Positions 1 to 38,269 of a stretch of 38,813 nucleotides of DNA are shown in pieces. The stretch spans positions 1 through 38,813 of the forward strand of contig JAEDJP010000002.1 in NCBI GenBank assembly GCA_016296285.1, given 5' to 3'. The stretch's first letter is position 1. Every line of letters begins with the position of its first letter. Source of the stretch: Bacilli bacterium (lineage in GTDB: Bacteria; Bacillota_I; Bacilli_A; RFN20; CAG-826). The position numbers were made by a program, and so were the translations under genes. The notes beneath the pieces were generated by a model. The model was not told the origin of the DNA. It ran no database searches and was given only the letters and a program-made list of their open reading frames with translations.

Positions 1-965
<965 letters not shown>

Positions 966-1071
966 TTCACTAAATCCCATTATGGGAATGAGTAAGCTAA
1001 GTCAAGCGCAAGCAAAGCGTCAGAAAGATCAATGATCAACATCCGGTTGTCAAGGAGCGGGGGAAAAAAGA

Positions 1072-1185
1072 AGTCCGGTGGCGATGGCGCGGTGGTCACA
1101 CCTGTTCCCATCCCGAACACAGAAGTTAAGCACCGCAGTGGCGATTGTAGCCGGGGAACCGGCAAGAGTAGCGCGCTGCCGGGCT
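1072..1185 (+). rRNA. rrf: 5S rRNA (114 nt)
   Basis: Conserved core cctgttcccatcccgaacacagaagttaagc. The 5' agtccggtggcg pairs with the 3' cgctgccgggct (helix I). A T-run follows immediately. Confidence 0.9.
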
Positions 1186-5655: not shown

Positions 5656-7655
5656 AACTCACGAGTTCCGCCCGTTTGAACTTGCTGTTGCAGGAGATGG
5701 GGATCACCTCTCCCCTCGATGTCATTGCCCACCTCCCCCGGCGTTACGATTCCTTTTTGTACACCCCCGCCTCCGCTTTGCGGCACCTCCAAGACAAGGA
5801 GAAGGTGGTCCTTTTTGGCAAGGTCATCCTTCCCCCGGATTGCCACAAATTCGCGAAAGCGAGCCTCGTCCGCTTCCTCTTCCGCTCGTATGAGGGCAAC
5901 CAGGATTTCGAGATCGAGGCATGGAACCGCCACTGGCTCGCCAAGACGATCGATACGGAACAGGAATACACCATCAAAGGGGCCTACGACGCGGAAGGGC
6001 ATTGCCTGAACCTCATCAGCATGAAGCCTGGGCGCATTCCTCCCCAAGAAGCGATCGTCCCCGTCTATTCCCTCCCGACGGACTACCCGGAGCATTCCTG
6101 GCGCCAGCTCGTCAAACGGGCCCTTGAGGTCGAGAAAGGCAAGGTCCCCGACGTCGTCCCTGCTCCCCTCCGCGAGAAATATCGCCTTCTTTCCCATTAC
6201 GATGCCTTGGCCAAATGCCATTTCCCGACGTGTCCGGAAGACATCCATCAAGGGCAACGAGTCCTCAAATACGAAGAAGCCCTTTCCTTCAGCCTCAAGA
6301 ACCAACTCATCCGTTCCGCGAACAAAATCCAACGGACGTCCCCTCCAAAAATGATCGATTTCCATGAGGTCGGCGAGTTTGTGCGCTCGCTTCCTTACCC
6401 CCTGACGGGCGACCAGAAGAAGGCGGTGCGCGACGGCCTCACCGATATGAATGCCCCCGAGCTCATGTATCGTTTGCTGCAAGGGGATGTCGGAACGGGC
6501 AAAACCTTGGTCGCGGCCATTCTCCTTTATGGCAATTATTGCAGAGGCAAGCAAGGCGCGATCCTCGCCCCGACGGATGCCCTTGCAAGGCAGCATTACG
6601 AATCCTTGAAAAGCCTTTATGCCTCCACTCCCGTGAACGTCTCCCTCCTCGTCGGGGCGATGAGCGCCGCGGACCGCAAGGCAGTCCTAGAAGGTCTCAA
6701 GAACGGGACAATCGACATCGCCGTCGGGACGCACGCCCTCTTTTCCGAGGGGGTGGTGTACGCGGATCTCGGGTTTGCCGTCATCGACGAGCAGCATAAA
6801 TTCGGCGTCAACCAGCGTCGGCTTCTTTGCGAAAAAGGGGATGGTGCGGATGTCCTTTTGATGTCCGCGACTCCCATTCCCCGTACCCTGTCCCTCACGC
6901 TTTACGGGGATCTCGACGTTTCCGTGCTCGCGGAATTCCCCGCGAAGGAACGCCGCGTCGTCACGAAAATCGTCAAACCAAACGCCCGCGAGCTTTTTGC
7001 TGCTGTCTCGGCTTCGATTTCCTCGGGCCACCGCGCCTTCATCATCGCCCCTCAAATCGAGAATCGCGAGGAAGGCGAGCTATCCGCGGAAGGGGTATAC
7101 TCGGCCTATAAAGCCCTCTATCCAGGCCTCGTCGGCCTCCTTCACGGCAGGCTCTCACCCGAAGAAAAAGAACGCGTCATTTCCAAATTCAAGGAGGGCG
7201 TGTATCCGATTTTGGTGTCTACCTCCGTCGTCGAGGTAGGCATCGACGTCAAGGAAGCGAACCTCATGGTCATCTATGGGGCCACCCATTTCGGCCTTTC
7301 TTCCCTCCATCAGCTCCGAGGCAGAATCGGGCGCGGAGGGGACGAGGCGACTTGTTTACTCGTCAACGGCGGAACCGACGAGAAAGACAAGGCCAAGCTC
7401 GGCGTTTTGACGAGGACGAACGACGGATTCAAGATCGCCGAGGCGGACCTCAAGATGCGCGGCCCTGGCGAAGTCTCGGGCCTCCGACAATCGGGGATCC
7501 CTTCCTTCCGGTTCGTGAATCTTTACGAGGACCTCCGCCTCTTTGAATGCGCCCGAGAAGACGCCGCCTTCGTCCTCGCCCATCGAAACCTTCCCGCGTA
7601 CAAGGCCTTCGTCGAAGGCCTCGAAAAAGAGACGAGCATCTCCTCTTTGGCCTAA
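5652..7655 (+). CDS. recG: ATP-dependent DNA helicase RecG
   Basis: 667 aa. Walker A GDVGTGKT, VIDEQHKFGV, LLMSATPIPRTL, QLRGRIGRG. TTG start at 5652 overlaps the upstream TGA. Confidence 0.93.
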   Translation: MKLTSSARLNLLLQEMGITSPLDVIAHLPRRYDSFLYTPASALRHLQDKEKVVLFGKVILPPDCHKFAKASLVRFLFRSYEGNQDFEIEAWNRHWLAKTIDTEQEYTIKGAYDAEGHCLNLISMKPGRIPPQEAIVPVYSLPTDYPEHSWRQLVKRALEVEKGKVPDVVPAPLREKYRLLSHYDALAKCHFPTCPEDIHQGQRVLKYEEALSFSLKNQLIRSANKIQRTSPPKMIDFHEVGEFVRSLPYPLTGDQKKAVRDGLTDMNAPELMYRLLQGDVGTGKTLVAAILLYGNYCRGKQGAILAPTDALARQHYESLKSLYASTPVNVSLLVGAMSAADRKAVLEGLKNGTIDIAVGTHALFSEGVVYADLGFAVIDEQHKFGVNQRRLLCEKGDGADVLLMSATPIPRTLSLTLYGDLDVSVLAEFPAKERRVVTKIVKPNARELFAAVSASISSGHRAFIIAPQIENREEGELSAEGVYSAYKALYPGLVGLLHGRLSPEEKERVISKFKEGVYPILVSTSVVEVGIDVKEANLMVIYGATHFGLSSLHQLRGRIGRGGDEATCLLVNGGTDEKDKAKLGVLTRTNDGFKIAEADLKMRGPGEVSGLRQSGIPSFRFVNLYEDLRLFECAREDAAFVLAHRNLPAYKAFVEGLEKETSISSLA

Positions 7656-8414: not shown

Positions 8415-9422
8415 GTGGGCTTATTCGCGTTTTTGAAAAGCAAATTCGGCAAGAAAGGGACAAGCGCCCCTGCCGATGAAAAAGAATCCAGGGACATCTA
8501 TTCCAAAGGCCTCGAGAAGAGCCGCAAGAATTTCGCTTCCCGCCTCGACGCGCTCAGCAAGCGTTACGCGAAGATCGATTCCGACTATTTCGAGGAACTT
8601 GAGGAAATCCTGATCGAATCCGACGTCGGCGTCGACCTTTCCATCCGCCTGTGCGAGACGCTGCTCGACAAAGCGACCAAGGAAAAGATTTTCGAGCCGA
8701 AGCAAATCAACGAAATGCTCGTCGACGAGATGTTCGTCGGCTACGCGACCAAAGGCGACGTCATTCAAAACGAGATCTCGTTTGCCGAAAACGGACCCAC
8801 GGTCCTCCTCGTTTGCGGCGTCAACGGTGTTGGGAAGACGACGACGATCGCCAAGCTCGCCTACCGGTATCTCCATCAAGGGAAGTCCGTTTTGCTCGTC
8901 GCGGGCGACACGTTCCGCGCGGGTGCCGTCGAGCAACTCCGCGTCTGGGCGGAGCGCCTTGGCTGCCCCATCATCACGGGCAAGCCGGAAAGCGACCCAG
9001 CTTCTGTCGCCTATGACGGGGCGCGGTACGCAAGAGAGCACGGCGTCGACCTCGTGATCGTCGATACGGCCGGGCGTCTCCAGACGAAGGCGAACCTGAT
9101 GCAGGAACTCGCGAAAATCCGTCGCGTCCTCGGCAGGGAAATCGAGGGAGCCCCCCAAGAGACGTTCCTCGTCATCGATGGGACCACGGGGCAAAACGGG
9201 GTCTTGCAAGCCAAGGCCTTTAAAGAAGTCACGGACCTCACGGGCATCGTCATCACGAAGATGGACGGCACCTCGAAAGGCGGCATCATCCTTTCGATTC
9301 GCGACGAACTCGGCATCCCCGTCCGCTTCCTCGGCCTAGGGGAAAGGATGGAAGACCTGCAGGAATTCGACCTCGACAAATATTTGTATGGCCTCTTGCT
9401 TGGAGGGGACGCCAATGAATGA
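8415..9422 (+). CDS. ftsY: Signal recognition particle receptor FtsY
   Basis: 335 aa. GVNGVGKTTTIAKLA, DTAGRLQ, TKMDGTSKGG. GTG start. Confidence 0.93.
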   Translation: MGLFAFLKSKFGKKGTSAPADEKESRDIYSKGLEKSRKNFASRLDALSKRYAKIDSDYFEELEEILIESDVGVDLSIRLCETLLDKATKEKIFEPKQINEMLVDEMFVGYATKGDVIQNEISFAENGPTVLLVCGVNGVGKTTTIAKLAYRYLHQGKSVLLVAGDTFRAGAVEQLRVWAERLGCPIITGKPESDPASVAYDGARYAREHGVDLVIVDTAGRLQTKANLMQELAKIRRVLGREIEGAPQETFLVIDGTTGQNGVLQAKAFKEVTDLTGIVITKMDGTSKGGIILSIRDELGIPVRFLGLGERMEDLQEFDLDKYLYGLLLGGDANE

Positions 9423-9753: not shown

Positions 9754-11089
9754 GTCTTTGGGTGATAAATTCGCCGGCATTTTCAAGAAGATGCGCGGCA
9801 ACGCGACGCTGACCGAGAAGAACATGGACGACATGCTGAAGGAAATTCGCGTCGCCTTGCTTGAGGCCGACGTCAATTTCAAGGTCGTCAAGGCTTTCGT
9901 CAACGACGTGAAAGAGAAAGCCATCGGTCAGGACGTCTATCACAAGGTCAATCCTTCCCAGATGGTCGTCAAGATCGTTCATGACGAGATCCAAAGCCTT
10001 TTGGGCGAGGAACAATGCGGCCTTACCGTCGAGTCAAGCGGGCTCACCTCCATCTTGCTCCTCGGCCTCCAAGGCACCGGCAAAACGACGACCGCCGGGA
10101 AGCTTTCCTATCAACTCGCGAACAAAGAAGGCAAAAAGGTCCTCGTGGCCGCGCTTGACGTCTACCGTCCCGGTGCGATCGAGCAACTCGAGGCCGTCAT
10201 CGGCAAGACGTCCGCGTCTTTCTTTTCCCTCGGGAAGGACAAAGACCCGGTCGATATCGCGAAAGAAGCCAAGAAGAAGGCTCTCGCGGAGGGATATGAC
10301 GTTCTCATCCTCGATACCGCAGGCCGTCTCCAAATCGATGAGGGGCTTATGGAAGAGCTTCGTCGCATCAACCACGAGATCCACCCGACCGAGGCCCTGC
10401 TTCTCGTGGACGCGGCTGCCGGCCAAGACGCGGTGAACGTCGCGAACGTCTTCAACAAAGAGCTTCGCTTGACCGGCATCATCATGTCGCGTCTCGACGG
10501 CGATGCCCGTGGTGGCGCGGCTTTGTCCATCAAATACCTGACGGGGCTCCCCATCAAATACGCGGGCGTCGGCGAGAAAGTGAGCGACATTGAGCCGTTC
10601 TATCCCGACCGCATGGCGGACCGCATTCTCGGCATGGGCGACGTCGTCACCCTCGTTGAGAAGGCCAAAGAAGCCGTCGACGAGAAGCAAGCGGAGAAAG
10701 ACGCGAAGAAATTCCTTGACGGGGATTTCACCTTGGAAGACATGCTTCGCCAGATGAAGCAAGTCCAGAAAATGGGGTCCATGAAATCGCTTTTGAAGCT
10801 GATTCCCGGCATGCCGAAAATCTCGGATGAAGACCAAGCGCGCGGGGAACGGGAGATGAAGACCTTCGAGGCCATCATCAATTCGATGACCCCGTACGAG
10901 AGAAGGCACCCGGAGACCCTCCGTTATTCGCAGAAGAACCGCATCGCGAAAGGCTCGGGCAAAACGAACGCGGACATCAACCGCGTCCTCAAGAAATACG
11001 AGCAATCCAAAGAGATGATGAGACAGATGAAGCAGTATTCCAAGACGGGGAGAATGCCACGCGGAGGAAATAACCCCTGGGGAAGATAA
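9743..11089 (+). CDS. ffh: Signal recognition particle protein Ffh
   Basis: 448 aa. GLQGTGKTTTAGKLS, DTAGRLQ, SRLDGDARGGAALS, Met-rich M domain. SD GGAGGA at 9729-9734. Confidence 0.95.
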   Translation: MAFESLGDKFAGIFKKMRGNATLTEKNMDDMLKEIRVALLEADVNFKVVKAFVNDVKEKAIGQDVYHKVNPSQMVVKIVHDEIQSLLGEEQCGLTVESSGLTSILLLGLQGTGKTTTAGKLSYQLANKEGKKVLVAALDVYRPGAIEQLEAVIGKTSASFFSLGKDKDPVDIAKEAKKKALAEGYDVLILDTAGRLQIDEGLMEELRRINHEIHPTEALLLVDAAAGQDAVNVANVFNKELRLTGIIMSRLDGDARGGAALSIKYLTGLPIKYAGVGEKVSDIEPFYPDRMADRILGMGDVVTLVEKAKEAVDEKQAEKDAKKFLDGDFTLEDMLRQMKQVQKMGSMKSLLKLIPGMPKISDEDQARGEREMKTFEAIINSMTPYERRHPETLRYSQKNRIAKGSGKTNADINRVLKKYEQSKEMMRQMKQYSKTGRMPRGGNNPWGR

Positions 11090-11092
11090 GCC

Positions 11093-12958
11093 ATGCCTGG
11101 CATCAAAGAGCCGATCTACGAGCCGCGCAAATTCTACGAGCAAAGCCTGAAGCAGCAATACCATGATGAGGCCTCGCGCTTTTTCGACGAGCTTGTCGCC
11201 TCTTCAAAGGTCGATGTCGAGGGGAACCGGACCCATGTCGCCGACTACCGGAAAACGGCCAGCCATTTGGACACCGAGAAGAAGAACGCATCCCATTTCA
11301 AGGGGTGGCGCACGTTCCTCGTCGTGTTGATCGTCTTGGCTTTCTTCATTGGGATCGTCCTCGCCATCGCGGGTTTCGCGAATCTCGAGAAGGGGTGGGT
11401 GAGCCCTGTTTGCGGCGTGTTTTTGGTGTGCCTCGGCGTCGGCTTGCTCGCGTATCTCGTCAAGGTGCTTAATCCCAAGATCAAGGATCTCGAGGGCAAG
11501 CTCCGGGAACTCGAGAAGACAGCCCAGACGCAAAAGGATCTTTGTTTCGAGGATTTGGCGGAGTTGAACCGCAATTACGATTGGAACATCCCGGGGGAAA
11601 TCATGAAGAAAACGACCCCCGTCCTCGATCTCGATCGCTATTTCCTCGTGGGACGGTTCGCCTATCTCGTCCAAAAATTCGGCCTCCCGAAAGACTTTGG
11701 CGAAGACACGACGATTCTCGGCGTCCTCTCCGGGAACATCCAAGGGAACCCCTTTGTCCTCGAACGCGACCTCTCTGAGCAAATCGTGGATATCCCTTAC
11801 ACGGGTTCCATCGTCATCACCTGGACGACGACGCATCATAACAAAGACGGAAGTTACACGGTGACCCACACGGAAACCCTGACCGCGACCGTTTTCCACC
11901 CCGGTCCCCGCTACGACACGCAGACGCGCCTCATCTACGGGAATCAAGCGGCCCCCAATCTTCACTTCACGCGTCGCCCGACTGGGGCAGACACCCAAGA
12001 CGAGAAGAAGGTTGCTCGCTTCGTGAAGAAAAGGAACAAGATCCTCGACAAAAAGGCGAAAGAAGATTTGATGGACGATGACCCGACTACGAATTTCACG
12101 AAGATCGGGAACGACAAATTCGACGCGCTATTCGGGGCGGACGACCGCGACAACGAAACGGAATTCCGCCTGCTCTATACCCCGCTTGCCCAGAAAAACA
12201 TTTTGGATTTGCTCACGAACCCATTGCCGTTTGGCGATGATTTCGCGCAGGTCAAGGACGGCATGCTCAATAGCATCGCTTCCAGGCACTCGCAACAATT
12301 CGAATACGACGCAAATCCCGCTCGTTTCATCGACTTTGACGTGGATTCTGCGAAAACCAAATTCGTTTCTTATTGCGATGCCTTCATCCAAAATCTCTAT
12401 TTCGATCTCGCGCCGCTCATCTCCATACCGCTCTATCAGACGCACATGCCGGACGAATACATCGCGGGGACCATGGACGAATTCTCCAACTTTTCCACCT
12501 ACGAGCACGAGGTCATGGCGAACTCCTTGAATCCTGCCGCGTTCCGCCCCGACGAAGCCGATCCGCGCCTTCCTTTGATCCTCAAGGTCTCGAAAGCGGA
12601 GAAAGATGGCAAAGACGACGTGGTCCGCATTCGCGCCTATTCCTTCAAAACCACCCCGAGGACCGATTTCGTACGGAAACTCGGCGGGGATGGGCATATG
12701 CATACGATTCCCGTCCATTGGGTTCAATATGACAAGGTCGAACGCGAAGAAGGCATGGTCGTCTCCGACATCGGGGGCACGAATCGTTCTTACGCGGAAA
12801 AGATCAACGATGCGATTCGCTCCTTCGTCAAAGATGGTGCCTCCCATTACGAAAGAGGCCTTCTCGCCTATCCTGCCGACGGGAAAGACCGAAATGATGA
12901 GATTCGGCAGGCAATCCTTTCCGTCTTCTCTAAAGAGAAGGAAGGGGTTAAGATATAA
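11093..12958 (+). CDS. Uncharacterised membrane protein (cytoplasmic N-terminus, two TM helices at ~aa 73-95 and 103-123, coiled-coil stretch, ~480-aa C-terminal domain)
   Basis: 621-aa ORF. ATG lies 3 nt after the ffh stop. Hydrophobic hairpin RTFLVVLIVLAFFIGIVLAIAGF / VSPVCGVFLVCLGVGLLAYLV. No family recognised with certainty. Confidence 0.75.
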   Translation: MPGIKEPIYEPRKFYEQSLKQQYHDEASRFFDELVASSKVDVEGNRTHVADYRKTASHLDTEKKNASHFKGWRTFLVVLIVLAFFIGIVLAIAGFANLEKGWVSPVCGVFLVCLGVGLLAYLVKVLNPKIKDLEGKLRELEKTAQTQKDLCFEDLAELNRNYDWNIPGEIMKKTTPVLDLDRYFLVGRFAYLVQKFGLPKDFGEDTTILGVLSGNIQGNPFVLERDLSEQIVDIPYTGSIVITWTTTHHNKDGSYTVTHTETLTATVFHPGPRYDTQTRLIYGNQAAPNLHFTRRPTGADTQDEKKVARFVKKRNKILDKKAKEDLMDDDPTTNFTKIGNDKFDALFGADDRDNETEFRLLYTPLAQKNILDLLTNPLPFGDDFAQVKDGMLNSIASRHSQQFEYDANPARFIDFDVDSAKTKFVSYCDAFIQNLYFDLAPLISIPLYQTHMPDEYIAGTMDEFSNFSTYEHEVMANSLNPAAFRPDEADPRLPLILKVSKAEKDGKDDVVRIRAYSFKTTPRTDFVRKLGGDGHMHTIPVHWVQYDKVEREEGMVVSDIGGTNRSYAEKINDAIRSFVKDGASHYERGLLAYPADGKDRNDEIRQAILSVFSKEKEGVKI

Positions 12959-21840: not shown

Positions 21841-23130
21841 ATGATGCGGGTCGATATCATCGGTGGCGGACTCGCGGGTTCCGAAGCGGCTTATTTCCTC
21901 CTCAAACGAGGGTATGAGGTCCATCTTTTCGATGCGCGCCCCTCTTATCAAGACGGGGCACACGAGACGGAATTCCTCGGCGAACTCGTTTGCTCCAACT
22001 CCCTGAAATCGAAACGCCTTGATAACGCCTGCGGCCTTCTCAAAGAAGAGATGCGTCAGCTGGGGTCCCTCATGATGGAGGCTGCCGATTACGCGGAAAT
22101 TCCTTCCGGCAACGCCCTTGGGGTGGACCGGGAGCAATTCGCGAAATTCATCACGGAACGCCTCTTGGCCTTCCCTTCTTTCCATTTGCATCGAGAGGAA
22201 GTGCGCGCTTTGCCGGAAGATCATCTGGCGATTTTGGCGACGGGCCCTTTGACGAGCCCCGATTTGCTGAACGACCTTTCAAGCAAACTCGGTGTCAAGA
22301 ACCTGTCCTTTTTCGATGCGAGCGCCCCCATCGTCAAAAAGGATTCCGTCGATTTCTCGAAAGCCTACGTCAAATCCCGTTACGAGCAAGAGGACGGGGG
22401 CTACATCAATTGCCCGATGGACAAGAGCGAGTATTTTGCCTTCGTCAAGGAACTCATCGGGGCGAAGAAGGCTCTCGTCCACGAATTCGACACCCATTAT
22501 TTCGAAGGCTGCTTGCCCGTCGAAGTCATCGCGAGCAGAGGCCTCGAGACGTTGCGTCACGGCCCGCTTAAGCCTTTTGGGCTCGAGACCCCGGAACACC
22601 CAAAGCCGTATGCCGTCGTCCAGCTTCGCCAAGACACGAAGCTCGGGGATTACTACAACATCGTCGGTTTCCAGACGAATCTCACGTACCCGGAGCAGAA
22701 GCGCGTCTTCTCGATGATCCCGGGCTTGGAGCATGCAGAATTCCTTCGTTACGGCCTCATGCATCGCAATTCTTACATCAATGCCCCCCTTGTTTTGCAA
22801 AATGACCTATCGCTGAAGGTGCTTCCAAACGTCTTCGTCGCTGGCCAGCTTTCCGGGGTCGAAGGGTATGTCGAAAGCGCCGCGATGGGGATTCTCGCCG
22901 CCATCCACGTTGCCCGTCGCCTTGAAGGGAAAGGTTTCCTCAAGGTGCCCCGCGAAACGATCTATGGGGGTCTTGTTTCCTACATCTTGCACGCCTCCCC
23001 CTCTTCATTCTCCCCGATGAACGCGAACTGGGCCCTTTTGCCCATGGCAAAGAAAGAGAACCGCGACGCGACCATCAAGACATCGTTAGAGGCGATGCGC
23101 GCCTTCGCGGAGCAAGTGAAGAATGATTGA
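21841..23130 (+). CDS. trmFO: Methylenetetrahydrofolate-tRNA-(uracil54-C5)-methyltransferase TrmFO (Gid)
   Basis: 429 aa. IIGGGLAGSEAAYFL and ELVCSNSLKS. Position after topA. Confidence 0.92.
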   Translation: MMRVDIIGGGLAGSEAAYFLLKRGYEVHLFDARPSYQDGAHETEFLGELVCSNSLKSKRLDNACGLLKEEMRQLGSLMMEAADYAEIPSGNALGVDREQFAKFITERLLAFPSFHLHREEVRALPEDHLAILATGPLTSPDLLNDLSSKLGVKNLSFFDASAPIVKKDSVDFSKAYVKSRYEQEDGGYINCPMDKSEYFAFVKELIGAKKALVHEFDTHYFEGCLPVEVIASRGLETLRHGPLKPFGLETPEHPKPYAVVQLRQDTKLGDYYNIVGFQTNLTYPEQKRVFSMIPGLEHAEFLRYGLMHRNSYINAPLVLQNDLSLKVLPNVFVAGQLSGVEGYVESAAMGILAAIHVARRLEGKGFLKVPRETIYGGLVSYILHASPSSFSPMNANWALLPMAKKENRDATIKTSLEAMRAFAEQVKND

Positions 23131-24061
23131 CGAAGAATTCCTTCCTCTGCTTCAACCTTTCGTCCAAGAGTTGCTCTTTTCCCGCGGCTATTCCTCCAAA
23201 ACCGCGGATGCCTATGTGAATGACATTGAGATTTTCCTTCGCTTCCTCCAGAAGAAGGACGTCGCGCTCAACGAGGTCGATGAAGCGGTGATCACGGAAT
23301 TCCTTTCCGGTGAGATTCGGCGGGGAATCGGGAAGAGGACGCTTGGCAGAAGGTTGTCCGCCTTACGCCTTTTTTACCATCACCTGAGGAAGCGCTCGCC
23401 CGATGAATTCCACGACAACCCGTTTGAGGGTTTTTCTTCCCCGAAGGCCGAAATCAAGTACCCCACTGCCCTCTTTTTCGAACAAGTGAAGTCCTTGCTC
23501 GATGCGAATGCCAAAAGGGACGACCCCTTGATGACGCGCGATCAAGCCATTCTGGAACTCCTTTACGCCTCGGGAATGCGCGCTTCGGAACTCATCGCTT
23601 TCGAGCCACGCGCCATCGATTATCGAAGCCGGATGATTCGAGTCTATGGCAAGGGCAAGAAGGTGCGCATGGTGCCTTTCGGGCAAAACGCGGAGAGATG
23701 GATGCGTCGTTACCAAGAGGAACTCCGGCCTGGCCTTTTGGCCAAAAACAAGCAGGACATAGCATTGAAAAAGGCCAAACCATTCTTCCTAAACGCCCAA
23801 GGGAACGCTTTGACGGTACGCGGTCTTGAATACATTTTGGCCACGATCGAGAAAAAGATCGGCAGCCACCTTGACCTCCATCCCCATGAGCTGCGTCACA
23901 CGTTCGCGACCCACCTTCTCCAAAACGGCGCCGACTTGCGCCTCATTCAGGAACTGCTCGGACACGAGTCCATCAACACGACCCAGGTCTACACCCATTT
24001 GACCACGGAAGACATGCAGGAACAATACGCCCGCTGCTTCCCTCAGCGAACCAAAAAGTAG
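23123..24061 (+). CDS. xerC: Tyrosine recombinase XerC/CodV type
   Basis: 312 aa. ...GMRASEL..., HELRHTFATHLLQNGADLRLIQELLGHESINTTQVYTHL. Position after trmFO, as for B. subtilis codV. Confidence 0.88.
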   Translation: MIDEEFLPLLQPFVQELLFSRGYSSKTADAYVNDIEIFLRFLQKKDVALNEVDEAVITEFLSGEIRRGIGKRTLGRRLSALRLFYHHLRKRSPDEFHDNPFEGFSSPKAEIKYPTALFFEQVKSLLDANAKRDDPLMTRDQAILELLYASGMRASELIAFEPRAIDYRSRMIRVYGKGKKVRMVPFGQNAERWMRRYQEELRPGLLAKNKQDIALKKAKPFFLNAQGNALTVRGLEYILATIEKKIGSHLDLHPHELRHTFATHLLQNGADLRLIQELLGHESINTTQVYTHLTTEDMQEQYARCFPQRTKK

Positions 24062-24098: not shown

Positions 24099-24127
24099 TT
24101 GCAGGCCCCCACGCGTATGTGTATACT
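24099..24127 (+). promoter_or_regulatory. Candidate rpsB promoter TTGCAG-17 nt-TATACT
   Basis: Exact 17-nt spacer. Predicts a ~130-nt 5' UTR. Confidence 0.5.
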
Positions 24128-24266
24128 TTCGTCGCTGCGTTTTCGCAGTAATACGCACCCCGTGGATTCCGCGCCGTGTTCCTCCTGGGCCGAAGCAGGC
24201 TTAAAAAGCAGTGAGGTGGTCAGCGGTTCGAAGCGAGGGAGGCATAAACAAATGGAGGTCACCTAC

Positions 24267-25271
24267 ATGAGTGACGAAATCAAGGAAACCGTCGCGGTCG
24301 AAGAAACCGCGGCCCCGGCTGCTAGCGCCGAGCCGACCATGGCTGAAGTCTTCCACGACCCCAACGCTCCCATCATCACGATGAAGAAGTGCTTGGAAGC
24401 CGGCGTCCACTTCGGACACCAAACCCACCGCTGGAACCCGAAGATGGGCAAGTACATCTACGGCGCCCGCAATGGCATCTACATCATCGATCTCAACAAG
24501 ACGGTTGAGCGCACCATCCTCGCTTACCAGGCCCTCAAGGCCATCGTCGAAGCGGGCGGAAAGGTCCTCTTCGTCGGCACCAAGGCCCAGGCCCAGCAAA
24601 TCGTCATCGACGAAGCGGTCCGCTCTGGCTCCTTCTACATCACCAACCGCTGGCTCGGTGGCACCCTCACCAACTGGCGCACCATCGCGAGCCGCATCAA
24701 GCGTCTCCGCGATCTCGACGCCGCCCAAACCGACGGCTCCTGGGACAAGCTTCCGAAGAAGGAAGTCGCCCTCCTCCGCAAGGAATACGCCAAACTCGAC
24801 AAGAACCTCGGCGGCTTGAAGGAAATGCGCCGCCTCCCGCAGGCCATCGTCCTCGCCGATCCGTCTCTCGAGAAGAATGCCGCTCTCGAAGCCCGCAAGC
24901 TCAACATCCCGGTCTTCGCCCTCTGCGACACCAACGACGATCCCGAAATCATCGACTTCCCCGTCCCGACCAACAACGATGCCACGAGCGCCATCAAGCT
25001 CATCGTCGGCGTTCTCGCTGACGCTGTCGTCGAAGCCCGCGCTGGCGTGACCGAATTCGCCTACACCAAAGACGAAGGCGAAGAAGCCACCATGGCCGAT
25101 GCCATCCGCGTCGCCGACATCGCCGCCGAACAGCATCGTCAAGCCGTCCGCGCCGCCCGCAAGGCCCGCGAAGAGCGCTATGCCAAGATGCGTGCCGAAC
25201 GCGAAGCTCGCTTCCAAGCCCGCCGCGCCGAAGCCGCCAAGAAGGCCGAAGCCGCTAAGGAGACCAAATAA
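24267..25271 (+). CDS. rpsB: 30S ribosomal protein S2 with N- and C-terminal extensions
   Basis: Core LEAGVHFGHQTHRWNPKM...LGGTLTNW. SD GGAGG at 24254-24258 supports ATG 24267. Ala/Glu/Arg/Lys-rich C-terminal tail. Confidence 0.92.
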   Translation: MSDEIKETVAVEETAAPAASAEPTMAEVFHDPNAPIITMKKCLEAGVHFGHQTHRWNPKMGKYIYGARNGIYIIDLNKTVERTILAYQALKAIVEAGGKVLFVGTKAQAQQIVIDEAVRSGSFYITNRWLGGTLTNWRTIASRIKRLRDLDAAQTDGSWDKLPKKEVALLRKEYAKLDKNLGGLKEMRRLPQAIVLADPSLEKNAALEARKLNIPVFALCDTNDDPEIIDFPVPTNNDATSAIKLIVGVLADAVVEARAGVTEFAYTKDEGEEATMADAIRVADIAAEQHRQAVRAARKAREERYAKMRAEREARFQARRAEAAKKAEAAKETK

Positions 25272-26116
25272 TGGCTACCCCGACCATTGACCAGATCAAA
25301 GCCCTCCGCGATCGCACCGGAGCCGGCATCATGGATTGCAAGAAGGCCCTCATCGAGGCCGATTGCGATATCGAGAAAGCGATCGACGTCCTTCGTGAGA
25401 AGGGCATCGCCAAGGCCGTCAAGAAATCCGGCCGCGTCGCCGCCGAAGGCCTCGCCCTCGTCAAGAGCGATGCCTCCAAAGCCATCATCCTCGAGCTCAA
25501 CTGCGAGACCGACTTCGTCTCTTCGAGCGACAAGTTCCAGAAACTCATCGCCGACTGCTTGGATGTCTGCTTCGAGAAAGAGGCCGCGACCGTTGAGGAA
25601 GCCCAGGCTGTCTGCGCCGACCTCATGGCCGAAGCCACCATCGCCATGGGCGAGAAGTTCCAGCTTCGTCGCTACACCATCCTCCATGCGAAGGATGGCG
25701 AGGCGTTTGGCTCCTACATCCACATGCACGGCAAGATCGCTGCCCTCGTCGTCGTCTCCAAGGATCTTGGGGAAGGCAACCGCGGCCTCGCGATGACCGT
25801 TGCCTCCGCCGCTCCGGAATACCTGACCCTCGCGGATGTCCCGGCCGCCGACCGCGCTCGCGAACTCGCGATCGCCGAGAAGGAAGTCGCCGAAGATCCG
25901 AAGCTCCAGGCCAAGCCCGAGAACGTCAAGGCGATGATCGCCCAGCGCAAAGTCGATTCCCGCCTCGGCGAGAATTGCCTCGAAGCCAAGCCTTACGCCT
26001 TGGATCCGGACGGAAAGCTCACCGTCGCCCAATACCTCAAGGAAAAGGGCGCCTCGGTCGTTACCTTCGTCCGCTACCTCGTCGGTGAAGGCGTTGACAC
26101 CTCCGCCAAGGAGTAA
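25271..26116 (+). CDS. tsf: Elongation factor Ts
   Basis: 281 aa. IKALRDRTGAGIMDCKKAL N-terminal domain. TAATG overlap with rpsB. Confidence 0.93.
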   Translation: MATPTIDQIKALRDRTGAGIMDCKKALIEADCDIEKAIDVLREKGIAKAVKKSGRVAAEGLALVKSDASKAIILELNCETDFVSSSDKFQKLIADCLDVCFEKEAATVEEAQAVCADLMAEATIAMGEKFQLRRYTILHAKDGEAFGSYIHMHGKIAALVVVSKDLGEGNRGLAMTVASAAPEYLTLADVPAADRARELAIAEKEVAEDPKLQAKPENVKAMIAQRKVDSRLGENCLEAKPYALDPDGKLTVAQYLKEKGASVVTFVRYLVGEGVDTSAKE

Positions 26117-26130
26117 CCATTCCTTGAATT

Positions 26131-26161
26131 CCCCCTTGCCTCTTCATGGCGAGGGGGTTTT
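26131..26161 (+). terminator. Strong rho-independent terminator after tsf
   Basis: 10-bp stem cccccttgcc / ggcgaggggg, 7-nt loop, tttt. Confidence 0.8.
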
Positions 26162-26485
26162 CATTTGGCGACGCGAACCGGCATCTTTCCGCGGGCATGA
26201 GAAAAAACCGCGAAAGGAAAGCAGCTAGTTCACAATGCTTTCTGCTGACGATATCAAGAAAGAACCTCAAAAGAGTCAATCAAAATAATTGGGAAAACCA
26301 GGCCAATGTCCGGGGAAAACTTGTGAATACGTGGAAAAGGATTTACGTATCAAAAGCCTTGTTTTTGACCCACATCAAGCAAATTAAAATGTGAGAGGCG
26401 CGATATAAACGATGGGAAACTTGAGCTTACCGTGGCGCGTGTAAGTCGGGAATTCAGCCAATTGCCGTTCCGAAGCCGATTCGCA

Positions 26486-26830
26486 TCAATAAATCAACGC
26501 ATCATATGCCTTCCGAGACGATTCGAGGAGGCCGTTCACTAGTTCGGGAATCGGACTAGATTTCAGCCATTCCAGAAACCCAACGTAAATTGCGGTGTAT
26601 TCTAGATGGTCGTTTGAACAGATGCATTCTTCAACAAACTCGCAGATTCTTTTGACCATCTCGGCGTTTTTATTCATTGCAGCCTCTTTGCAAAACGGAT
26701 TGAATACGTCTTCAACAATCAACGTTGATCCTGTTCGAATTCCGTCTTGCCAAGAAACATAGGTTTCAAAGCAATCATGAATCTCCGGGAATTTTTCGAG
26801 GAGCTTTCTGTTGAACAATTCATCTTCCAT
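26486..26830 (-). CDS. Small helical, Cys-rich hypothetical protein; immunity-protein-like (tentative)
   Basis: 114 aa. AAGGA SD 7 nt upstream. 11-nt overlap with the upstream 93-aa ORF. Low-GC codon usage. Layout FPEI...TLIVEDVFNPF...MVKRICEFVEECICSND...YTAIYVGFLEWL resembles small immunity-type proteins found next to polymorphic toxins, by my recollection only. Confidence 0.55.
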   Translation of the reverse strand: MEDELFNRKLLEKFPEIHDCFETYVSWQDGIRTGSTLIVEDVFNPFCKEAAMNKNAEMVKRICEFVEECICSNDHLEYTAIYVGFLEWLKSSPIPELVNGLLESSRKAYDALIY

Positions 26831-27101
26831 TTTCTAGTCCTTTCAATGCGTCAAGCAAATCGTTTAGCAATTCAATCAAGGCGTCTTTATCCTGATGGTT
26901 CGGGGTCTTTACTAGGATTTTTCTGATTTGGCGGACTCGATCTTGTGCCTTTTTCAAATGAGACCCAGGACGGCTCGCTATTCCCATCTCCTTTTCGTGT
27001 CTTAAGGCATCTGCAGTTCCGCCATCACCGATTATAGCGCCCGGCCGATACAATTCCTTTACGAGGTTTTTTCCTTCAGGAGTTTTCATCTTTTTGAGCA
27101 T
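26820..27101 (-). CDS. Small hypothetical protein with a polymorphic-toxin-like motif (tentative)
   Basis: 93 aa. Strong SD AGGAGA with a 4-nt spacer before the ATG (5 nt if the core is taken as AGGAG). Motif PGAIIGDGGTADALRHEKEMG...GSHLKKAQDRVRQIRKIL followed by a helical tail. Low GC. Confidence 0.55.
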   Translation of the reverse strand: MLKKMKTPEGKNLVKELYRPGAIIGDGGTADALRHEKEMGIASRPGSHLKKAQDRVRQIRKILVKTPNHQDKDALIELLNDLLDALKGLENGR

Positions 27102-27278
27102 TTACTCTCCTTTTGAACTCATCTTCCTTTCTGTGCTTTCGCTTTTTGGAGTTTCGTTGTGAAGAGAGGTATCTGTTTTCAAACCCGCACCCCCTTCTCT
27201 GCTTGATTTTTCGGAAAGAAGGGACGCTTGAATGACGGCCGGGGCCATATTATCAAACAACGGACTATTCCCTTTCAT
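27102..27278 (-). CDS. Small Ser/Glu/Lys-rich hypothetical protein (58 aa from the SD-supported ATG; the ORF track extends it to 87 aa from TTG 27365)
   Basis: GGGGGAGG SD 6 nt upstream of ATG 27278. In the same reading frame as the 93-aa ORF, separated by a single TAA. Low-complexity sequence, so coding status is uncertain. Confidence 0.35.
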   Translation of the reverse strand: MKGNSPLFDNMAPAVIQASLLSEKSSREGGAGLKTDTSLHNETPKSESTERKMSSKGE

Positions 27279-27393
27279 GGCTGGCCTCCCCCTTTGCTTT
27301 CCGCGACGAGGAAGCCCGTTTCTATCTGTGGGCTCGAAATCAGGATCTTGAACCGACGCGAACAACCTTTATTTTGAAGTGCCTTTGCCTTAA

Positions 27394-27399
27394 TATACT
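27394..27399 (+). promoter_or_regulatory. -10 box TATACT 6 nt upstream of pyrH ATG (leaderless-type)
   Basis: taatatactcgtgctATG with no SD. Poor -35. Confidence 0.35.
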
Positions 27400-27405
27400 C
27401 GTGCT

Positions 27406-28128
27406 ATGAAATCCATTTATCGAAGAGTGATTCTCAAGCTTTCCGGCGAGGCTTTGGCGGATGCCAAGGATGCCACGATCCTCGATCACGAAAAGCTTGC
27501 TTCCATCGCAAGCAGTGTCGCGATGATCCGCGAACTCGGCGTCGATGTCGGCATCGTCGTCGGGGCCGGCAACATCTGGCGAGGCCGCCTGGCCGACAAG
27601 ATCGGCATCGAGGCTTCCACCGCGGACTACATGGGCATGCTCGGCACGGTCATCAACGCCTTGGCCATCCAAAGCGCCATCGAGGAGAAGGGCCTCTCTT
27701 GCCGCGTCCTCTCCGCGATCAACGTCCCGCAGGTGTGCGAGCCTTATTACCGCAGAAAGGCGATTTCCCACCTCGAGAAAGGCCGGGTCGTCATCTTCGC
27801 CGGCGGAACGGGGAATCCTTATTGCACGACCGATTCCTGCGCCGCGCTCAGGGCGCTTGAAGTCAACGCGGACGCGATTCTCATGGCGAAAAACGGCGTC
27901 GACGGGGTCTATGATGCCGATCCTCGGACCCACAAAGACGCGAAGAAACTCACGCGCATCACCCTCAACGAGATGATCGAACGCCAACTCGCGGTCATGG
28001 ATCTCGGCGCCGCGGCGATGCTCACCGGAAAGAAAAAGACGATACGGGTCTTCTCAATGGACGATCCGGAAGCCTTCCGCAAAGTCCTTTGCGGCGAGGA
28101 TGTCGGCACCACGGTCGTGGATGAATAA
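27406..28128 (+). CDS. pyrH: UMP kinase
   Basis: 240 aa. RVILKLSGEAL, GAGNIWRG, DGVYDADP. Confidence 0.95.
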   Translation: MKSIYRRVILKLSGEALADAKDATILDHEKLASIASSVAMIRELGVDVGIVVGAGNIWRGRLADKIGIEASTADYMGMLGTVINALAIQSAIEEKGLSCRVLSAINVPQVCEPYYRRKAISHLEKGRVVIFAGGTGNPYCTTDSCAALRALEVNADAILMAKNGVDGVYDADPRTHKDAKKLTRITLNEMIERQLAVMDLGAAAMLTGKKKTIRVFSMDDPEAFRKVLCGEDVGTTVVDE

Positions 28129-38100: not shown

Positions 38101-38177
38101 CGGGACGTAGCACAGCTTGGTAGTGCGCCTGGTTCGGGACCAGGAGGTCGCGGGTTCGAACCCCGCCGTTCCGACCA
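38101..38177 (+). tRNA. tRNA-Pro (anticodon CGG), CCA encoded
   Basis: Cloverleaf folded by hand. Acceptor cgggacg/cgttccg, D stem gcac/gtgc, anticodon stem cctgg/ccagg with loop ttCGGga, T arm gcggg ttcgaac cccgc, discriminator A, CCA. Confidence 0.9.
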
Positions 38178-38192
38178 TTTTTTCTAAGCGCT

Positions 38193-38269
38193 GTCTCCGT
38201 AGCTCAGCTGGATAGAGCACTTCCCTCCTAAGGAAGGGGTCAGGCGTTCGAATCGCCTCGGGGACGCCA
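38193..38269 (+). tRNA. tRNA-Arg (anticodon CCU), CCA encoded
   Basis: Acceptor gtctccg/cggggac, D arm gctc agctggata gagc, anticodon stem cttcc/ggaag with loop ctCCTaa, T arm aggcg ttcgaat cgcct, discriminator G, CCA. Confidence 0.9.

Follow-up and report, generated by a model that had tools for sequence, protein, structure and literature searches.

A probable decayed toxin–immunity island between tsf and pyrH of a Bacilli bacterium, with a broken toxin-type gene and an intact DUF7674 gene

The window analysed here is a 38,813-nt stretch of the genome of a Bacilli bacterium (contig JAEDJP010000002.1, positions 1 to 38,813), in which the genes follow the order topA – trmFO – xerC – rpsB – tsf – island – pyrH – frr – uppS – cdsA – dxr – rseP – polC. 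From topA to polC, PolC-bearing Bacillota usually have their genes in this order. Our subject is the island, 1.2 kb of DNA (26162-27363) between tsf (25271-26116; TIGR00116, E 2e-66) and pyrH (27406-28128; TIGR02075, E 3e-87), which carries two genes on the minus strand: a toxin-type gene split by a stop codon and an intact gene of the DUF7674 family. The two flanking genes are 1289 nt apart, against a median of 76 nt at 121 other loci where pyrH follows tsf on the same strand, 118 of which have gaps of less than about 330 nt. In the closest relative that we found (L103; Tsf 62% and PyrH 69% identical) the gap measures 62 nt and holds a terminator, a TATAAT box and a Shine-Dalgarno sequence (SD). 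The G+C content (GC) is 0.41-0.47 over 26200-27400, compared with 0.60-0.65 in tsf and 0.59-0.64 in pyrH, and the value of 0.452 for the whole island is the minimum among 1.2-kb stretches of the window (median 0.554, 5th percentile 0.511). A foreign low-GC cassette at this place had been proposed from the letters alone (hereafter the sequence-only reading), on four hand counts that proved exact, and the short, empty spacer that it suggested looking for in relatives is the one seen in L103.

The same reading placed three small open reading frames (ORFs) on the minus strand, and the coordinates, SDs and 11-nt overlap that it gave are right; the number of genes is two. Its '58-aa' (27278-27102) and '93-aa' (27101-26820) ORFs share one frame, translation leaves TAA (27104-27102) alone between them, and their homologues are single proteins of 130-152 aa, on which grounds we rejected the three-gene reading. 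Where the homologue P0002 (152 aa, 83% identical) has ...KMSPKGEEMLGKMKTPEGKN, the window has ...KMSSKGE*MLKKMKTPEGKN. The orthologous codon is GAA (Glu) in two related contigs, L001 and L092, and the interruption of this 152-codon gene is therefore a single G-to-T nonsense change in the window. Codons 1-58 (27105-27278, minus strand), with a GGGGGAGG SD upstream, encode a variable, predicted-disordered N-terminal region. The 93-codon ORF that follows (26820-27101, minus strand) has an AAGGAG SD and an ATG of its own and encodes the complete C-terminal toxin-type domain, which is basic (isoelectric point, pI, 9.8). Two further readings of the gene were rejected: an 87-aa ORF starting with TTG at 27365, whose extension is an out-of-frame ImmA fragment and whose orthologues start at the ATG at 27278, and a reading of TAA as a sense codon, since tsf itself terminates in TAA.

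The split gene belongs to a large family, to which a profile search assigned 454 proteins and an exhaustive search 2330 representative clusters at E<=0.001 (1475 at E<=1e-10). The conserved part is made up of the last ~95 residues, in which the motif ELYRPGAxIGDGGTADAxRxE…GGKSHxxKAxER…D…L can be recognised; Y77/R78, D85, E95, H107, K110 and R114 are invariant. In an AlphaFold2 (AF2) model of an orthologue, computed from an 88-sequence alignment, this part is a domain of five helices with a confidence score (pLDDT) of about 90, preceded by 50 disordered residues (pLDDT <50 at residues 9-46). In the exhaustive profile search the domain also turned up in proteins of 300-2322 aa, where it takes up the last 95-110 residues. 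Pfam found RHS repeats in two of them, of 2322 and 1336 aa, and DUF637 in a CdiA-like protein of 695 aa; in a further one, of 811 aa, the RHS_repeat match is marginal. Over its full length the 93-aa ORF of the window can be aligned to residues 2233-2321 of the 2322-aa RHS protein, with 39% identity and E 7e-17, and it covers profile positions 48-136, which is nearly exactly the RHS C-terminal domain. Since no N-terminal secretion or trafficking domain was matched in the local 152-codon form, and its N-terminus is disordered, the window copy is a stand-alone or orphan form rather than a full polymorphic toxin. Its activity can be guessed at: because the conserved residues are mostly polar (R78, D85, E95, H107, K110, R114), the domain is not hydrophobic and the partner protein is acidic, the toxin could be an enzyme acting on nucleic acid, a tentative assignment that we would not favour over its alternatives.

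The second gene of the island (26486-26830, minus strand) encodes an intact DUF7674 protein of 114 aa (Pfam PF24722, E 7e-12), which is acidic (pI 4.6). The sequence-only reading could name no family for any of its ORFs; this holds for the two pieces of the split gene, while the 114-aa product now has a name. No other family and no DNA-binding domain was detected in it with Pfam, NCBIfam and PADLOC, the literature searched holds no mention of DUF7674, and AF2 modelling from just two aligned sequences gave no usable structure (pLDDT 45). What speaks for its role is its position. In each of the 13 contexts examined, which cover several delivery types, the DUF7674 gene starts between -11 and +4 nt from the end of the toxin-domain gene, and at every locus of a long protein that we fetched it starts 0-2 nt after the stop of the toxin protein. 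It thus follows an RHS gene in L100, where an orphan Ntox24/Imm53 pair comes next, a CdiA-like gene in L101, with a POTRA_2 protein nearby, and the gene of a 534-aa domain-bearing protein in L102; in arrays on viral contigs (L184, L186) a 231-aa orphan with the domain at its end precedes a DUF7674 protein of 123 aa. The window protein and the one encoded after the RHS toxin are 27% identical (E 4e-10). In L100 the stretch at 10656-12075, with its orphan Ntox24-like protein and Imm53 gene, is a typical polymorphic toxin array. A domain at the C-terminus, an adjoining DUF7674 gene and a basic/acidic pair of products are together the defining genomic signatures of a polymorphic toxin C-terminal domain with its immunity protein, and we therefore infer that DUF7674 is the cognate immunity protein. 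The earlier suggestion that the 93-aa ORF is a toxin and the 114-aa product its partner thus finds support in the comparison of genomes.

Related contigs show how the island came to its present form. L001 is 92% identical to window positions 24938-27301 and carries tsf, the non-coding stretch found in the window, DUF7674, a toxin ORF of 152 aa without a break, a DUF4417 gene, an ImmA-like gene and an Xre gene. Its DUF4417 frame (1716-2444) is open for ~240 codons, but the first ATG, GTG or TTG does not appear before codon ~64, so this allele may be partly decayed or have an unusual start. The window lacks L001 positions 1178-2406 (~1.2 kb) and with them the whole of DUF4417 and two-thirds of the ImmA-like gene at its 3' side. 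What is left of the latter is a 62-nt fragment of an ImmA/IrrE-like metallopeptidase gene (27298-27359, minus strand; 90% identity to L001 1116-1177), with the deletion junction at 27298-27301; this fragment joins directly to the region upstream of pyrH. A third allele is found on eight contigs of about 90% identity (L092-L099), in which the pyrH side joins position 27364 directly to 27183; this deletion removed the ImmA fragment and the first ~32 toxin codons along with the right copy of the repeat described below, and there is an additional 1-nt deletion in an A-run. The DUF7674 ORF remains intact, at 114 codons, in every related contig that covers it. The ratio of non-synonymous to synonymous substitution rates (dN/dS) is 0.7-1.0 in the toxin domain (from 18 non-synonymous changes and 5 synonymous ones relative to L001), 0.23-0.27 in DUF7674, and 0.03-0.04 in tsf and pyrH. 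Synonymous divergence (dS) is similar within the island (DUF7674, 0.26-0.33) and in its flanks (tsf, 0.17; pyrH, 0.22-0.32), which suggests a single old insertion, inherited vertically and followed by independent decay.

On its left side the island starts just 3' of the intrinsic tsf terminator (26131-26167, plus strand), a 10-bp G+C-rich stem followed by a T-run. The strong terminator noted there earlier was recovered by a terminator scan at 26131-26157 plus the T-run; the hairpin is kept in L001 and L093, and L103 also has a terminator after tsf. Directly after the T-run comes the left copy of an exact 10-nt direct repeat, CGACGCGAAC (26169-26178), kept in L001 and L093 as well; the right copy lies at 27354-27363, its first 6 nt overlapping the ImmA fragment, and the homology of the L092-type alleles on the pyrH side stops at 27364, right at its edge. 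The statement of the sequence-only reading that no direct repeats flank the cassette is thus wrong. When 43- and 41-nt segments of the window were paired at random, 0.34% of the pairs shared a word of at least 10 nt; the CGACGCGAAC pair is a candidate attachment-site core or target duplication. The ImmA homology ends with the first 6 nt of the right copy, and the deletion thus fits a microhomology event, which would have taken place between an internal CGACGC of the ImmA-like gene and the repeat at the right end of the island. Just 5' of the toxin gene start, 25 nt (27287-27311) are 72% identical to the stem region of the tsf terminator (26130-26154); the likeness, which falls partly in the ImmA fragment, is probably due to chance. 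The XerC-like gene at 23123-24061 was considered as the integrase of the island and rejected, as it sits in conserved trmFO-xerC-rpsB synteny.

The stand-alone members of the family come with recurrent gene neighbours. Outside the window, small ones (129-159 aa) were examined at seven different loci (L001, L004, L006, L008, L188, L190, L191), all of which have DUF7674 downstream of the toxin. At six of the seven a DUF4417 gene of about 232-245 aa lies directly upstream and overlaps the toxin start by 8-17 nt. Upstream of this triad, L001 has an HTH_3 gene of the Xre type followed by that of a 192-aa HEIKH (ImmA/IrrE-like) protein, whose Pfam match to Peptidase_M78 is weak (E 0.01, below the family cut-off); an HTH_31 gene and one for a 195-aa protein take the corresponding upstream position in L190. 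A related triad comes with a Phage_integrase gene in L004 and L005. In L004 this tyrosine recombinase gene and the triad span 3.7 kb between 41-nt direct repeats (7556-7596 and 11258-11298) that match at 40 of 41 positions and contain a terminator-like hairpin, and the unit is a minimal integrative islet; an Rfam scan of the islet found nothing. A second repeat in L004, of 31 nt and 87% identity (9152-9182 and 10852-10882), brackets the three-gene module alone. The sole stand-alone toxin/DUF7674 pair without DUF4417 (L191 3521-6325; L192 1304-2894) is followed by small unannotated genes, three of them of ~101 aa each, and by HEAT_2 proteins; the run of small genes may be an array of further immunity-like genes.

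We think it likely, with some reservations, that the feature is a decayed small island with toxin–immunity cargo, in which the toxin gene is broken and an orphan immunity gene is kept. A small integrative island would have inserted just 3' of the tsf terminator, in a natural gap between this terminator and the pyrH promoter; a comparable gap exists in L103, and the insertion therefore need not have broken the operon. The insertion would predate the divergence of the sampled strains of this Bacillota lineage. The cargo would have been a tightly coupled DUF4417 – small toxin – DUF7674 module, probably with an Xre repressor and an ImmA-like peptidase in control. The toxin would act through its basic five-helix domain of ~95 residues, the same one that RHS and CdiA-type polymorphic toxins are predicted to deliver, and the acidic DUF7674 protein presumably neutralises it by direct binding. 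Deletions then stripped all that lay on the pyrH side of the toxin gene, leaving the 62-nt ImmA fragment, before the GAA-to-TAA change cut the gene after codon 58. DUF7674 has stayed intact, most likely as orphan immunity against a toxin coming from neighbours, in its RHS or CdiA forms, or from intact islets in kin. The sequence-only reading had favoured a horizontally acquired toxin/immunity module. This is supported by the domain at RHS and CdiA-like C-termini, the adjoining DUF7674 gene, the mobility of the module in other genomes and the short empty spacer in L103. With its premature stop and deletion, however, the cassette is a remnant of a larger island rather than an intact module.

A number of observations weigh against this explanation. 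First, the toxin is so called on its genomic contexts: the toxin ORF and its N-terminal part have no credible match in Pfam, NCBIfam, PADLOC or PHROGs, and Foldseek comparison of the toxin model with PDB and BFVD returned no match at E<=0.001. The family and structure searches once suggested for this ORF thus yielded the five-helix model and no significant family or fold. The 152-aa orthologue and its relatives likewise contain no Pfam domain at E<=5, sequence searches of PDB with toxin, DUF7674 and DUF4417 profiles gave chance or designed-repeat matches only, and we treated as not significant the Foldseek matches of best probability, to four-helix bundles of large clostridial toxins (E>1). 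Second, the contrast in dN/dS between toxin and immunity genes comes from few substitutions (Fisher p 0.08-0.09) and is suggestive only. Third, 6 of the 10 nt of the right CGACGCGAAC copy lie inside ImmA-derived sequence, so the pairing of the repeat could be partly coincidental. Fourth, no integrase gene lies between tsf and pyrH, as had been remarked earlier, and no same-species allele with an empty site was found: all three alleles carry the island, and the sole 'empty' site is that of L103, a distant relative with Tsf 62% identical. Scans for closer relatives or an empty site gave a best Tsf identity of 45% in GTDB and 62% in JGI, and an exact look-up of the window Tsf protein found no matching record. 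Finally, the TAA could be an assembly error in a single contig, and the 93-aa ORF might still be made, as it retains the whole conserved domain with every invariant residue behind a strong SD and a TAAATG stop-start junction.

This last point opens the way to the main rival, a still-active pair resembling a toxin-antitoxin (addiction or stress) system, in which the 93-aa domain would be translated through TAAATG coupling and neutralised by DUF7674. The match between the 93-aa ORF and the RHS C-terminal domain, with all invariant residues kept, is what one would expect of it, as are the AAGGAG placed 5-6 nt before the ATG, the independent loss in the L092-type allele of the N-terminal region only, with the domain kept, and the constraint on DUF7674. 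However, the toxin domain itself evolves at a dN/dS of about 0.7-1.0, sister alleles have Glu at the position of the stop, and the Xre, ImmA and DUF4417 genes found upstream in L001, and presumably the promoter, are deleted in the window. A promoter scan of the minus strand returned just one weak promoter-like match, inside the toxin gene. We hold the active pair to be unlikely, though far from negligible.

The abundance of DUF4417 beside stand-alone toxins raises another possibility, namely that the triad works inside the cell as an anti-phage (abortive-infection) or inter-element defence, in which DUF4417 senses or acts on phage DNA and releases the effector; the window would then be a dead remnant, with DUF7674 drifting or co-opted. 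This would account for the presence of DUF4417 upstream at six of the seven distinct loci, for stand-alone toxins that have no recognisable secretion domain, for the Xre/ImmA control in L001 and a similarly sized HTH_31 and 195-aa pair in L190, and for one locus set among AAA_15/21, SLFN-like helicase and MazG-like genes. DUF4417 is moreover enriched in phages (154 phage records), where it is often annotated as a nuclease, a ParB-like fusion or a methylase fusion. Examples are NC_054784.1 (Mycobacterium phage Pharaoh gene 1) and NC_028697.1 (Streptococcus phage A25), where it immediately precedes the terminase genes. In none of the phages with DUF4417 could a homologue of either the toxin or DUF7674 be detected, and tblastn of three toxin/immunity queries against 50,697 phage genomes gave no match. 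A defence role fits poorly with the same toxin/immunity pair in exported RHS and CdiA-like toxins, with purifying selection on DUF7674 in alleles without DUF4417, and with PADLOC, which gave chance-level matches only (E>=0.01) for toxin and DUF7674. We regard this explanation, too, as an improbable one.

One trait of the family bears on these functions. In 42 of 172 small members, among them P0010, P0016, P0027 and P0048, a motif (L/I)(N/D)(I/L)Q(L/F)FA(S) occurs at residues 21-58, in some after a preceding (K), and it matches the cleavage motif of the Prp protease, MLxx(D/N)LQ(F/L)F'A(S/H)KK, known from ribosomal protein L27 and phage capsid proteins (PMC9405229; PMC5744158). The Prp substrates that it resembles are L27 and the capsid and scaffold proteins of staphylococcal phages. 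The toxin copy of the window does not have the motif, and the members that do may, to judge from this resemblance, be made as pro-proteins or be associated with phage particles. Put together, DUF4417, toxin and DUF7674 could form an undescribed three-component conflict system carried on very small islets that target the terminators of housekeeping genes, with a domesticated intracellular effector, a pro-protein in about one quarter of the members, DUF4417 as sensor or activator, and the window as a record of the death of the system with survival of the immunity gene; this is a speculative synthesis, which we consider more probably wrong than right by a wide measure. As for chance frames in spacer DNA or ordinary housekeeping genes of the lineage, for which one could cite the functionally unannotated toxin domain and the unconstrained look of the 320 nt beside tsf, they have next to no credit given hundreds to thousands of homologues with conserved motifs, the Pfam match of the 114-aa protein, a gene order kept in unrelated contexts, the foreign composition and the short empty spacer in L103.

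The rest of the island and its surroundings hold few other features. Between the left repeat and the DUF7674 gene lies low-GC DNA without a convincing gene (26179-26485), which evolves faster than the adjoining coding parts: the ~320 nt adjoining tsf show 84% identity to L001 and L093, versus 90-92% for the coding parts. The stretch has no Rfam match (E<=1) and no tblastx match to other loci, and an 82-aa plus-strand ORF in the island has no family match in Pfam, NCBIfam, PADLOC or PHROGs; we treat these 320 nt as unconstrained island DNA. On the other side, the native upstream region of pyrH (27364-27405, plus strand) is 94-95% conserved in L092-L099; it contains a TAATAT box (27391-27396), which stands 9 nt from the ATG, and lacks an SD, whereas L103 has TATAAT and an SD. 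The SD-less, leaderless-type promoter earlier proposed for pyrH therefore stands as to the box and the missing SD, but the box was not called by a consensus promoter scan. Further out, ribosomal protein S2 (gene at 24099-25271) is extended by ~35 residues N-terminally and by ~75 C-terminally; the C-terminal extension is rich in Ala, Arg, Glu and Lys, and the protein has an NCBIfam match, below cut-off, to the 'sunset domain variant' of S2. At the start of the window (1-1184) lie the 3'-terminal 970 nt of a 23S rRNA gene together with a 5S rRNA gene, and at its end (38101-38269) tRNA-Pro(CGG) and tRNA-Arg(CCT).

For the window itself the biological consequence is probably small: one working immunity gene and one pseudogene. 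Its wider significance is that it provides 1) a testable role for two unannotated families, the helical domain of ~95 aa (2330 representative clusters) and DUF7674; 2) a case in which foreign DNA could lodge and persist between tsf and pyrH, which are nearly always adjacent; 3) three allelic states of decay, in which the loss of the toxin can be seen while the immunity gene stays; and 4) leads, in the DUF4417 triad and the Prp-like motif, to a possibly new intracellular conflict system.

Among known systems, there is a close likeness to polymorphic toxins (RHS/YD-repeat, CdiA/two-partner secretion and phage-associated arrays), which have the same C-terminal domain with DUF7674 0-2 nt after it, a basic toxin with an acidic partner, and orphan copies in arrays beside pairs such as Ntox24/Imm53. 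The local gene differs in being a 152-codon stand-alone form with a disordered N-terminus, in belonging to a DUF4417-coupled subgroup and in being interrupted. Type II toxin-antitoxin systems also consist of two small, overlapping, co-oriented genes on mobile DNA, presumed to be harmful and neutralising, of which the protective one is kept. Here, however, the toxin comes first and matches no toxin-antitoxin toxin family, the partner has no detectable DNA-binding domain, and the usual unit comprises three genes with DUF4417, seemingly regulated by a separate Xre/ImmA pair. Small islands that tyrosine recombinases insert at the 3' ends of conserved genes, with duplication of an attachment site, resemble L004, with its integrase and triad between 41-nt repeats containing a terminator-like hairpin, and also the island of the window, right after the tsf terminator, with its foreign GC and 10-nt repeat; the differences are that the window and the assembled part of L001 contain no integrase and that the window repeat is short. 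Finally, the Xre gene followed by that of the 192-aa HEIKH protein in L001 recalls the ImmR/ImmA control modules of integrative elements and prophages, although the Peptidase_M78 match is weak and the window retains 62 nt of the gene. Orphan toxin/immunity remnants are common, and the feature of the window is of an ordinary kind in an unusual place. What is new lies at the level of annotation: a widespread toxin domain that had no name, DUF7674 as an immunity family, and a recurrent DUF4417-coupled triad that is sometimes borne by an integrase.

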